40,781 nt of DNA from a virus. Location of the stretch: UHGV virus genome UHGV-0177491, one strand, 5' to 3'. The notes beneath the pieces were generated by a model. It had not been told where the DNA came from and searched no databases. It saw nothing but the letters and a program-made list of their open reading frames with translations. The translations under genes and the position numbers were made by a program. This document shows positions 32,136-34,105 of the stretch, piece by piece (the first letter of the stretch is position 1; every line of letters starts with the position of its first letter).

Positions 32136-32422
32136 GACTTAATCTTCCCCTCCCTCAGCAGTATCGCCTGCGTCCTGATCACGCCTTCGAGGTGGTAAAG
32201 TCTGGCGTCTTTGTTGTCGAGATTATGGGTGCGTCGGTCGATCTCCGCGTGGCAGTCACTACAAGCCCATGCACCGATCAGGTCGTCAGGCTTCATTCCC
32301 GTTCCGCAAATTCCAGCCATCCGGTAATGTGCCAGAACTGTAGTTTCAGGATTACCATTGCATACGCCGTAAATACGTACCTGGCATTCTCTGCCGCGTG
32401 CTTCTTTGCGTAGGTTAGCCAT
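32132..32422 (-). CDS. DUF1364-family (YbcO-like) protein
   Basis: Cys/His-rich 96-aa protein immediately upstream of rusA, as in the DLP12 ybcO-rusA arrangement. Confidence 0.6.
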   Translation of the reverse strand: MANLRKEARGRECQVRIYGVCNGNPETTVLAHYRMAGICGTGMKPDDLIGAWACSDCHAEIDRRTHNLDNKDARLYHLEGVIRTQAILLREGKIKS

Positions 32423-33192
32423 TAAGCAGCCTCCCCTGTTACTTTCAGCATTCCGTTATCGAGCAGCTTTCTGGTCAGCCACTGTTGACCACGCCCGGTG
32501 ATTTTTGTGGTGAACGATATCTGTATTCCGTGATTTGTGTTGACCGCTGTTTCTTTCACTGTGAAATAGCCGCGCTCCATATATTCCTGCATTGGCACAT
32601 TGCGCCGGGAACCTGAAGCAATAAGGATTTTGTGATCACGCATCCACGCAAACAGTTTGTTTGGACCAGTACCGACAACCTTTGCAAAGTTTCCAATCAA
32701 AATTCCGCTGGCCTCGCCAACGCGATCGGCAAACTCAACTTTAGGTGCTGCGAGAGCAAGCTGCTGTTCCAACTTCACCTTCTGCTCATACTCATTAGCC
32801 CATGCTCTGGCAGCCTCTGCCGGGTTGGAGAAGTCAGGCAGTTGTAATTGCTGGCTCACTTTGTTGCGGAAATAGTTCCTCACCAACTCTCGCTGTACGC
32901 GCCACGCTGTCTCATCACGTAGTGTCTTTACCAGCATCAGATAGCCGGATTCTGTGAAAACCCTTAAGCCATTTGGTGAAATTTTCATCGACGGGTAGGC
33001 CGTCTGTTGCGTAAAATCAATAAGATACGTATCTTCTCCGTCTATAAAATATTTCGCGTTTCTCGCATAACCATCTTTGATAGTGGTTACTGGAACCCCG
33101 TGAATATCAGCAATCATTTGATACGTAACAACACGCTCACCATTAAACTCAATCGGCACGATTTCTGCGTTGGCAATAATTACGGCATTCAT
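32422..33192 (-). CDS. Antirepressor-like protein (ORF6N N-terminal domain plus Ant-like C-terminal region)
   Basis: N-terminal EFNGERVVTYQMIADIHGV...GLRVFTESGYLMLVK (ORF6N-like); central PDFSNPAEAARAWANEYEQK shared with the 2541..3212 protein. Confidence 0.65.
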   Translation of the reverse strand: MNAVIIANAEIVPIEFNGERVVTYQMIADIHGVPVTTIKDGYARNAKYFIDGEDTYLIDFTQQTAYPSMKISPNGLRVFTESGYLMLVKTLRDETAWRVQRELVRNYFRNKVSQQLQLPDFSNPAEAARAWANEYEQKVKLEQQLALAAPKVEFADRVGEASGILIGNFAKVVGTGPNKLFAWMRDHKILIASGSRRNVPMQEYMERGYFTVKETAVNTNHGIQISFTTKITGRGQQWLTRKLLDNGMLKVTGEAA

Positions 33193-33443
33193 GCAACACC
33201 TCCTTCAACGACAATACTGTCTCGCTTACCTTGTTCGCCTTCGAAGACGTAGAAATCACGCTTCCCGGTAATAACACCTAAATCATTGATTATGTTAGTG
33301 TGCTGCAATGCAGGAGGCTTGATAACGCCACGTTTCACCAATCTATCTATGGATACTTTTACATTGCTATGGCGGCTTTCTACCAGTTCGGCAATTTCGA
33401 TACTGGTCATCTTAACGGAAGAGAAACAAATTAAATTACTCAT
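33189..33443 (-). CDS. Small Rha-type N-terminal-domain protein
   Basis: MTSIEIAELVESRHSNVKVSI motif; ATGA-coupled to its neighbours. Confidence 0.45.
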   Translation of the reverse strand: MSNLICFSSVKMTSIEIAELVESRHSNVKVSIDRLVKRGVIKPPALQHTNIINDLGVITGKRDFYVFEGEQGKRDSIVVEGGVA

Positions 33444-33474
33444 TGCTATTCTCCGGTTTGCAAATTGTATTCAC

Positions 33475-33942
33475 TTAAACGCGAATGCGCACAAACTTAC
33501 AACCTAACGCCGATTTTATCTCTTCCTCGCGAATGCGATCCGCGTCCATATGCTGAGGCGCAAAATGTTGTTCCTCGTCTATTTCATAGGCGATATTGTT
33601 TACAGGATCATAGCCATCTATGCGGTATTTATCTAAAACCGGATATTGCCTTATTAATTTAACTCCTTGTAATTGTTCGATGGTGGTTAATGCTATTGTC
33701 TCAGCACATCTATTTAATGCTATTCTCTGATGCTTAAACACGTTAGCAACATCAGCATCAACAACAAAAACCTCTCGCTTAACTTTGAATCCTAGATTAT
33801 TTTCATAATATTCATATTTAATATCGTGCTTTATCCCGTTTTTTATTATGGTACGTTTCACATTGTCATGACGCTTACCCACCAACTCAGCGATTTCAAT
33901 GCTTGTCATTTTGATGGCATTGCCATTTATTAACTCATTCAT
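33475..33942 (-). CDS. Rha-type DNA-binding domain fused to a putative Vsr/DUF559-like endonuclease domain
   Basis: N-terminal MTSIEIAELVGKRHDNVKR; C-terminal AYEIDEEQHF...DADRIREEEIKSALGCKFVRIRV resembles a PD-(D/E)xK Vsr-like nuclease signature. Confidence 0.45.
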   Translation of the reverse strand: MNELINGNAIKMTSIEIAELVGKRHDNVKRTIIKNGIKHDIKYEYYENNLGFKVKREVFVVDADVANVFKHQRIALNRCAETIALTTIEQLQGVKLIRQYPVLDKYRIDGYDPVNNIAYEIDEEQHFAPQHMDADRIREEEIKSALGCKFVRIRV

Positions 33943-34105
33943 CGTCTTCTTCCTCGTACATTGAGCTATTCGGATCGCTCATCAGTTCTGCGCAGCAATC
34001 GGAGCACACGTGAACTTCCAGCACATGCAGTTTCTGACCGCAGTTAGCGCACGTTAAAGCCCGCTCGACGCTTTCTTGTTCGTAACTTCGATTTGGGTCA
34101 ATCAC
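33939..34105 (-). CDS. Small zinc-ribbon protein (NinD/NinF-like)
   Basis: About 55 aa with CANCGQK...CSDCC; GTG start overlapping the NinE stop; its stop overlaps the next ATG. Confidence 0.35.

Follow-up and report, generated by a model that had tools for sequence, protein, structure and literature searches.

Among the Vsr-like, or EDxHD, homing endonucleases, I-Bth0305I (PDB 3R3P; Taylor et al. 2011, PMC3239194) has a DNA-binding region at its N-terminus and, at its C-terminus, a Vsr-like catalytic domain, and free-standing genes for Vsr-like homing endonucleases (HEGs) are known from 'fractured genes', where they may sit inside or between the parts of a host gene, one such case having no intein and some additional residues where the gene is fractured (Dassa et al. 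2009, PMC2677866). The ICP1 protein Odn (Gp88) combines a HEG-type T5orf172 nuclease with a target-derived DNA-binding domain that resembles the DNA-binding domain of its target's replication protein (PMC8263062), and PLE CapR is reported to be a domesticated endonuclease that acts as a repressor (PMC8096241).

The window, i.e., the whole stretch of 40,781 nucleotides of viral DNA that we analyzed (UHGV-0177491), contains three ORFs on the minus strand whose positions had been given correctly by an earlier, sequence-only reading, with the small correction that the ninF product, which starts with GTG, has 56 rather than 55 residues. For the 155-aa ORF, we put the probability at roughly 0.6 that its product is a small, modular DNA endonuclease that cuts at specific sites and belongs to the free-standing homing-endonuclease type. 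In the predicted protein, a Rha-type winged helix-turn-helix (wHTH) would supply DNA recognition, a long helix would link it to the C-terminal domain, and this Vsr/DUF559-like domain, with the candidate active site E89-D109-(E120/D122)-H126-D135, would use Mg2+ to cut the DNA to which the protein is bound, like Vsr and I-Bth0305I. The features are:

33475..33942, minus strand: 155-aa ORF, Rha-type wHTH plus Vsr/DUF559-like nuclease; putative free-standing homing-type endonuclease
33475-33477, minus strand: stop codon of the 155-aa ORF
33847..33942, minus strand: 5' segment of the nuclease gene, first 96 nt (32 codons); left recombination joint of the cassette
33733..33912, minus strand: N-terminal winged helix-turn-helix domain, residues 11-70 of the 155-aa protein
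33478..33729, minus strand: linker helix and nuclease core, residues 72-92 and 93-155 of the 155-aa protein
33676-33678, minus strand: candidate active-site codon E89
33616-33618, minus strand: candidate active-site codon D109
33583-33585, minus strand: candidate active-site codon E120
33577-33579, minus strand: candidate active-site codon D122
33565-33567, minus strand: candidate active-site codon H126
33538-33540, minus strand: candidate active-site codon D135
33444..33474, minus strand: 31-nt spacer 3' of the nuclease gene, containing GGAG; leader for the downstream roi start
33189..33443, minus strand: 84-aa ORF, truncated 5' part of a roi allele with the Rha-type N-domain only
33935..34105, minus strand: ninF, 56 aa, zinc-ribbon-like; ordinary nin-region neighbor, outside the element
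32422..33192, minus strand: 256-aa Roi-type antirepressor-like protein, ORF6N N-domain plus KilAC/ANT C-domain

The sequence-only reading had paired an antirepressor-like N-terminal motif with a PD-(D/E)xK-like C-terminal signature, EIDEEQHF...D..R...L..G.KFVRIRV, which occupies residues 120-155, and pRha and DUF559 matches agree with both assignments. For the single window sequence, the scores for pRha, DUF559 (PF04480; E = 1.2 × 10−3, 19.1 bits vs. a gathering cut-off of 20.6) and, in the C-terminal part, MTES_1575 (E = 1.7 × 10−3) all lie under the Pfam gathering cut-offs, whereas at the family level, DUF559 is matched in 53/63 relatives (E ≤ 0.01) and in 75/141 distant representatives (E ≤ 0.001; best E-values 1 × 10−6 to 1 × 10−7). 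The AF2 model of the protein (pLDDT 86.9) consists of two domains and contains the restriction-endonuclease-like alpha-beta-beta-beta-alpha-beta core, the linker helix carrying the invariant E81 and E89. Residues E89, D109, E120, D122, E123 and H126 are invariant in the 63 relatives, D135 is conserved in at least 90% of them, and all of these residues remain at least 90% conserved among the 141 distant representatives; the nuclease fold suspected earlier is thus both predicted and accompanied by the expected conservation. Judged by order, spacing and the active-site residues reported in PMC3239194, rather than by superposition, the candidate residues match E25/D51/H64/H69/D97 of Vsr and E170/D196/N208/H213/D222 of I-Bth0305I, and in a profile alignment they align with the DUF559 motifs of 3hrl. 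I-Bth0305I (3r3p) did not come up when PDB sequences were searched by profile or by single sequence (E ≤ 10) and shares no detectable sequence similarity with the 155-aa protein, the likeness being structural only. A Foldseek search against the PDB gave no match at E ≤ 0.001; the repair enzyme Vsr is among the closest solved folds. [quoted passage not shown]

The N-terminal motif MTSIEIAELVGKRHDNVKRTI (residues 12-35) matches Phage_pRha with E = 4.2 × 10−5; the PF09669 score is 24.5 bits vs. a cut-off of 29.9, with profile positions 1-24 of 91 covered, and the TIGR02681 score is 19 vs. 45.95, i.e., a full-length Rha domain above the curated cut-offs of these two models was not found in the protein. 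Among the relatives, pRha is matched in 62/63 (best E = 2 × 10−15). The AF2 secondary structure of the N-domain (E11-13, H14-21, H25-34, E40-47, E53-62, H63-70) forms a compact wHTH, with pLDDT of 91-96 over residues 11-60 and 83 over residues 61-70, and Foldseek likens it, at weak E-values, to the wHTH domains of RacA and the MarR type. A Pfam search yielded no NUMOD match in the protein.

With the EDxHD homing endonucleases, the 155-aa protein shares a bipartite layout with a C-terminal Vsr-like domain, an equivalent E...D...x...H...D residue set and a phage-borne gene, and their combination of NUMOD with a C-terminal Vsr-like domain recurs in those relatives of the window nuclease domain that carry NUMOD3. 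The window protein differs in having a Rha-type wHTH instead of NUMOD, in its much smaller size (155 aa), in the absence of an intron or intein, and in the motif YEIDEEQH, which is of the DUF559 type (E-x-D-x-x-x-H). Its best sequence-level relative among solved structures is the DUF559/MTES_1575 protein NGO0050 (PDB 3HRL; profile E = 0.021), in which YRIDGY, YEIDExxH and DxxR are aligned with the window family. The DUF559 proteins, bacterial for the most part and of unknown function, mostly stand alone, often with other domains fused at the N-terminus, and are not known as phage Rha fusions. PvuRts1I and AbaSI, 5hmC-dependent restriction endonucleases with an N-terminal Vsr-like domain, have a similar nuclease core, to judge from the PADLOC mREase_II match (residues 106-155, E = 1.3 × 10−8, profile positions 53-102 of 294), the alignment of the PvuRts1I stretch EIDEAHH...D..R with the window protein, and 30% identity to AbaSI over 67 aa. 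However, their SRA-like modified-cytosine-binding domain is absent from the window protein, which ends at residue 155, the domain order is reversed, with the nuclease C-terminal in the window protein, and there is no sign of modification dependence. PADLOC having matched the nuclease domain of mREase_II alone, we rejected membership in a defense system; this is not a PvuRts1I-type enzyme. The likeness to Roi of HK022, HK97 and HK620 comprises identity to residues 1-32 of HK620 Roi, both HTH helices included, and the same position directly after ninF, whereas a nuclease domain stands in place of the KilAC/ANT domain of Roi and similar antirepressor-like proteins; the 84-aa ORF, for its part, differs from Roi in having nothing beyond the N-domain. 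Odn is alike in joining a HEG-type catalytic module to a DNA-binding domain homologous to that of the DNA-binding protein of a neighboring or competing element, and different in its GIY-YIG-like T5orf172 fold, as opposed to a Vsr-like one, and in its anti-competitor function, which is shown for Odn and only conjectured for the 155-aa protein.

A search with the 78-aa C-domain returned 1182 representative clusters (50% identity), in which the domain is almost always C-terminal. Its N-terminal partners in 141 representatives are pRha (37), Bro-N (11), NUMOD3 (10), HNH_repeat (5), AntA (3), KilA-N (3) and ORF6N (1), where HNH_repeat is a homing-endonuclease-associated module that, like NUMOD3, is typical of active homing endonucleases. 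The mEp044-like phages have a locus with flanks that are 88-90% identical and with differences confined to the N-domain, which may be a short Rha, a long Rha or Bro-N, a pattern that suggests modular retargeting. Relatives occupy unrelated positions (T4-type phages, lambdoid replication regions, near terminase genes), and other selfish elements, namely HNH genes and probable inteins, are found beside relatives; a chromosomal copy in Chromatium okenii, with no obvious phage around it, adjoins toxin-antitoxin and transposase genes. A homolog (P0072) is located between gp32 and frd, after an early promoter, in only 1/65 RB49-like phage records; at this Krischvirus site, JSE has no insert and RB49 has another endonuclease, of 485 aa. 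Full-text literature searches on Rha/Bro-N endonuclease fusions and on lambdoid free-standing HEGs produced no description of the fusion.

In the window, the element would be a cassette inside the 5' end of roi, composed of the nuclease gene, the 31-nt spacer and a diverged roi 5' end. The first 96 nt of the nuclease gene, comprising the whole helix-turn-helix, are 100% identical to the 5' end of HK620-type roi over 95 aligned nt, and the N-domain identity with Roi is specific to the first 32 codons of the window cassette. The spacer is kept between the window and loci L009-L011 despite different downstream genes; together with the next 49 nt, it was detected in no E. coli genomes but the 5 with the cassette, and its combination with an MSNLICFSSVK start occurs only with the cassette. 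The spacer thus travels with the nuclease gene. A stop-to-start gap of 33 nt, equal in lambdoid and T4-type loci, was considered as a shared 3' module and rejected: the stop-to-start spacer is homologous among the lambdoid loci and a duplicate of the local leader in the Krischvirus locus, and the equal length there is coincidental.

Nuclease DNA was found in 5/5426 E. coli genomes, 2182 of which have the ninF-roi region, and among 50,697 phage records it had one match only, in mEp044, at 84% identity. The identical 155-aa protein occurs in at least six different nin-region mosaics, and the cassette is 99-100% identical between genomes with flanks that are 77-96% identical, a contrast biased by the choice of the loci for similarity to the cassette or, in 8 loci, for the identical protein. 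Sporadic presence at a conserved site, alongside HEG-less alleles, which is the genetic signature of homing, is accordingly seen both at gp32-frd and at ninF-roi. The support for homing-type mobility is circumstantial. Lambdoid nin regions being highly mosaic, ordinary recombination without nuclease drive could also produce patchy presence and conserved cassettes. Inspection by eye revealed no convincing palindrome at the split roi junction.

If the endonuclease reading holds, the gene would be transcribed with the delayed-early nin operon and would borrow the translational coupling that normally links roi to ninF. Its cassette probably arrived via two crossovers within Rha-motif coding sequence, one in the nuclease gene's own Rha motif, which would have created the chimeric first 32 codons, and the other in the roi-like gene located 3' of the nuclease in mEp044-like phages. 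In a mixed infection or a prophage cross, cassette-free alleles would then be cut, the likeliest place being the 5' region of roi that is split by the insertion, or close to it, and the cassette would be copied in by recombinational repair. The 84-aa ORF is a by-product, a roi truncated when an ORF6N-KilAC allele recombined in, and NinF is unrelated to the element. Observations that count against the endonuclease reading include the scores under the Pfam cut-offs, the lack of detectable sequence similarity to I-Bth0305I and of a Foldseek PDB match at E ≤ 0.001, the Chromatium okenii copy, the chimerism of the N-domain with roi and the treatment of the gene as a pseudogene fragment by PGAP. What the computation shows is the fold, the conserved residues, the domain architecture, the patchy distribution and the mosaic joints; cleavage, the target site and homing are inferred. 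As to the functions suggested from the sequence alone, a site-specific endonuclease is possible and is the predicted activity, whereas an anti-defense role gained no specific support.

The alternative that survives best, possible but in our view unlikely, is a domesticated or 'weaponized' homing-type nuclease that binds the HK620-type Roi site and cuts competing lambdoid phages or prophages, i.e., inter-phage exclusion comparable to that by Odn, a HEG-type nuclease with a target-derived DNA-binding domain (PMC8263062). The identity of residues 1-32 to HK620 Roi fits this alternative, given that the adjacent roi fragment is of the HK97 type, with the helix ESRHSNVKVSI, unlike the HK620-type helix-turn-helix of the nuclease; so do the swapped N-domains at the mEp044-like locus, as an arms race would predict, and the Rha-family genes that adjoin relatives at three independent loci. 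However, outside the window, the similarity between the nuclease N-domain and the Rha-type neighbor is only generic, at the level of the family (42-50% over 24-31 residues), and the putative target gene has the same DNA as the 5' end of the nuclease gene itself. A general model of a nuclease that in every case takes over its neighbor's DNA-binding domain was rejected, as P0055 and its adjacent Rha, and P0005 and its adjacent Roi-like protein, share generic HTH similarity only. We tentatively consider a related proposal, to which we give a low probability, that the nuclease is retargeted by head exchange with resident antirepressor-type genes (Rha, Bro-N, AntA, KilA-N, ORF6N); the HK620-type Roi helix-turn-helix acquired here might then direct cleavage to the Roi site or roi allele of a rival, the phage's own roi being of a different type. 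Were this so, a borrowed regulator specificity would serve both roi invasion and attack on competing lambdoid phages, and the nuclease gene, being homologous to the target gene in its Rha motif, would bring along a recombination arm for ectopic insertion.

It is improbable that the protein is a regulator of the Rha/antirepressor class whose nuclease-like domain is silent and serves for dimerization or DNA clamping, for which CapR, reported to be such a repressor, would be the precedent (PMC8096241). Its relatives are named 'Rha family transcriptional regulator' in databases, and the gene sits among antirepressor-type genes (256-aa ORF6N-KilAC and 244-aa Rha-KilAC); however, the names derive from the 24-residue HTH match alone, the predicted catalytic residues are (nearly) invariant across 141 distant representatives, which is unexpected for a purely structural domain, and the same domain pairs with NUMOD3 and HNH_repeat. 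Quite improbable, too, is a non-functional recombination scar, in which a roi 5' end and a decaying nuclease gene are joined in a frame that happens to have stayed open. The RefSeq entries of related genomes imply as much: in NZ_CP178670 and NZ_CP064103, the PGAP feature covers exactly the first 96 nt, as a pseudogene named a partial 'Rha family transcriptional regulator', and the remainder of the gene has no annotation. The 5' end is indeed demonstrably chimeric and the adjacent 84-aa ORF a genuine remnant, but the exact 155-aa sequence is present in 297 index blocks, with an intact gene call in each of 8 loci inspected, relatives of 145 aa with 69-76% identity share the architecture, AF2 folds both domains with high confidence, every conserved family residue is retained, and translation would be served by a good Shine-Dalgarno sequence, GAGGAAG, in addition to the coupling to ninF. 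Finally, a non-mobile recombination or repair accessory, e.g., a nicking or mismatch-type endonuclease acting with NinB, YbcO and RusA, whose genes adjoin in a nin region rich in DNA-processing enzymes, is very improbable even with Vsr among the closest solved folds, considering that the gene is found in only 5 of ~2182 E. coli genomes with the ninF-roi region, that its relatives sit at unrelated positions, and that the core domain has only ~63 residues. Vsr itself has elements for T:G mismatch recognition and zinc binding (PMC3239194).

Should the endonuclease reading with site-specific cleavage prove true, it would add an uncharacterized, fairly large branch to the Vsr-like homing endonucleases (the 1182 clusters above), one that draws its DNA recognition from the antirepressor repertoire (Rha, Bro-N, AntA, KilA-N, ORF6N) and not from NUMOD repeats. 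It would also correct a systematic mis-annotation ('Rha family transcriptional regulator', 'hypothetical protein', pseudogene fragments), explain by one concrete mechanism how mosaic joints arise in lambdoid nin regions, and provide two-domain nucleases of very small size (145-165 aa) whose DNA-binding heads are exchangeable by nature and that might interest enzyme engineers. No new principle would be involved, modular and Vsr-like homing endonucleases both being known already.

The sequence-only reading had coupled a zinc-ribbon protein upstream and a Rha-domain-only paralog downstream of the nuclease gene. The upstream ORF is ninF (Pfam NinF, E = 7.6 × 10−14, 51.7 bits vs. a cut-off of 27.5; phrog_672, 5 × 10−36), located between ninE and roi in the same order as in HK97 and HK620, and the coupling is real insofar as it overlaps the start of the 155-aa ORF by 8 nt; it does not make NinF part of a unit, since the cassette-free HK97 has the same ninF/roi overlap and HK620 likewise has roi directly after ninF. 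The 84-aa ORF proved neither coupled nor a paralog: it does not overlap the nuclease gene, from which it is 31 nt away, has its own GGAG, and, after the cassette-specific N-terminus MSNLICFSSVK, follows the full-length Roi of E. coli IR53017 (93% identity over its first 79 aa) before ending in EGGVA-stop. No ANT domain was detected in this ORF, which ends after the Rha-type N-domain as a truncated Roi/KilAC member and is annotated as a pseudogene in NZ_CP178670; in 8 other loci, a full-length 241-aa roi takes its place, as is the case in most loci with the identical nuclease. A functional unit of three genes was therefore rejected, NinF being coupled to roi in cassette-free phages and the 84-aa ORF being mostly a full-length roi elsewhere. 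By sequence comparison, the 84-aa ORF corresponds to the initial 79 codons of a roi allele that later recombination has cut short, and the 256-aa gene has replaced the remainder: the junction to the leader of the next gene lies at ~33206, where homology to HK97 starts, the stop of the 84-aa ORF and the start of the 256-aa gene overlap in ATGA, and the 256-aa protein (Pfam ANT, 6.3 × 10−33; ORF6N, 7.7 × 10−11) has a C-terminal half that is nearly identical to those of HK97 and HK620 Roi.

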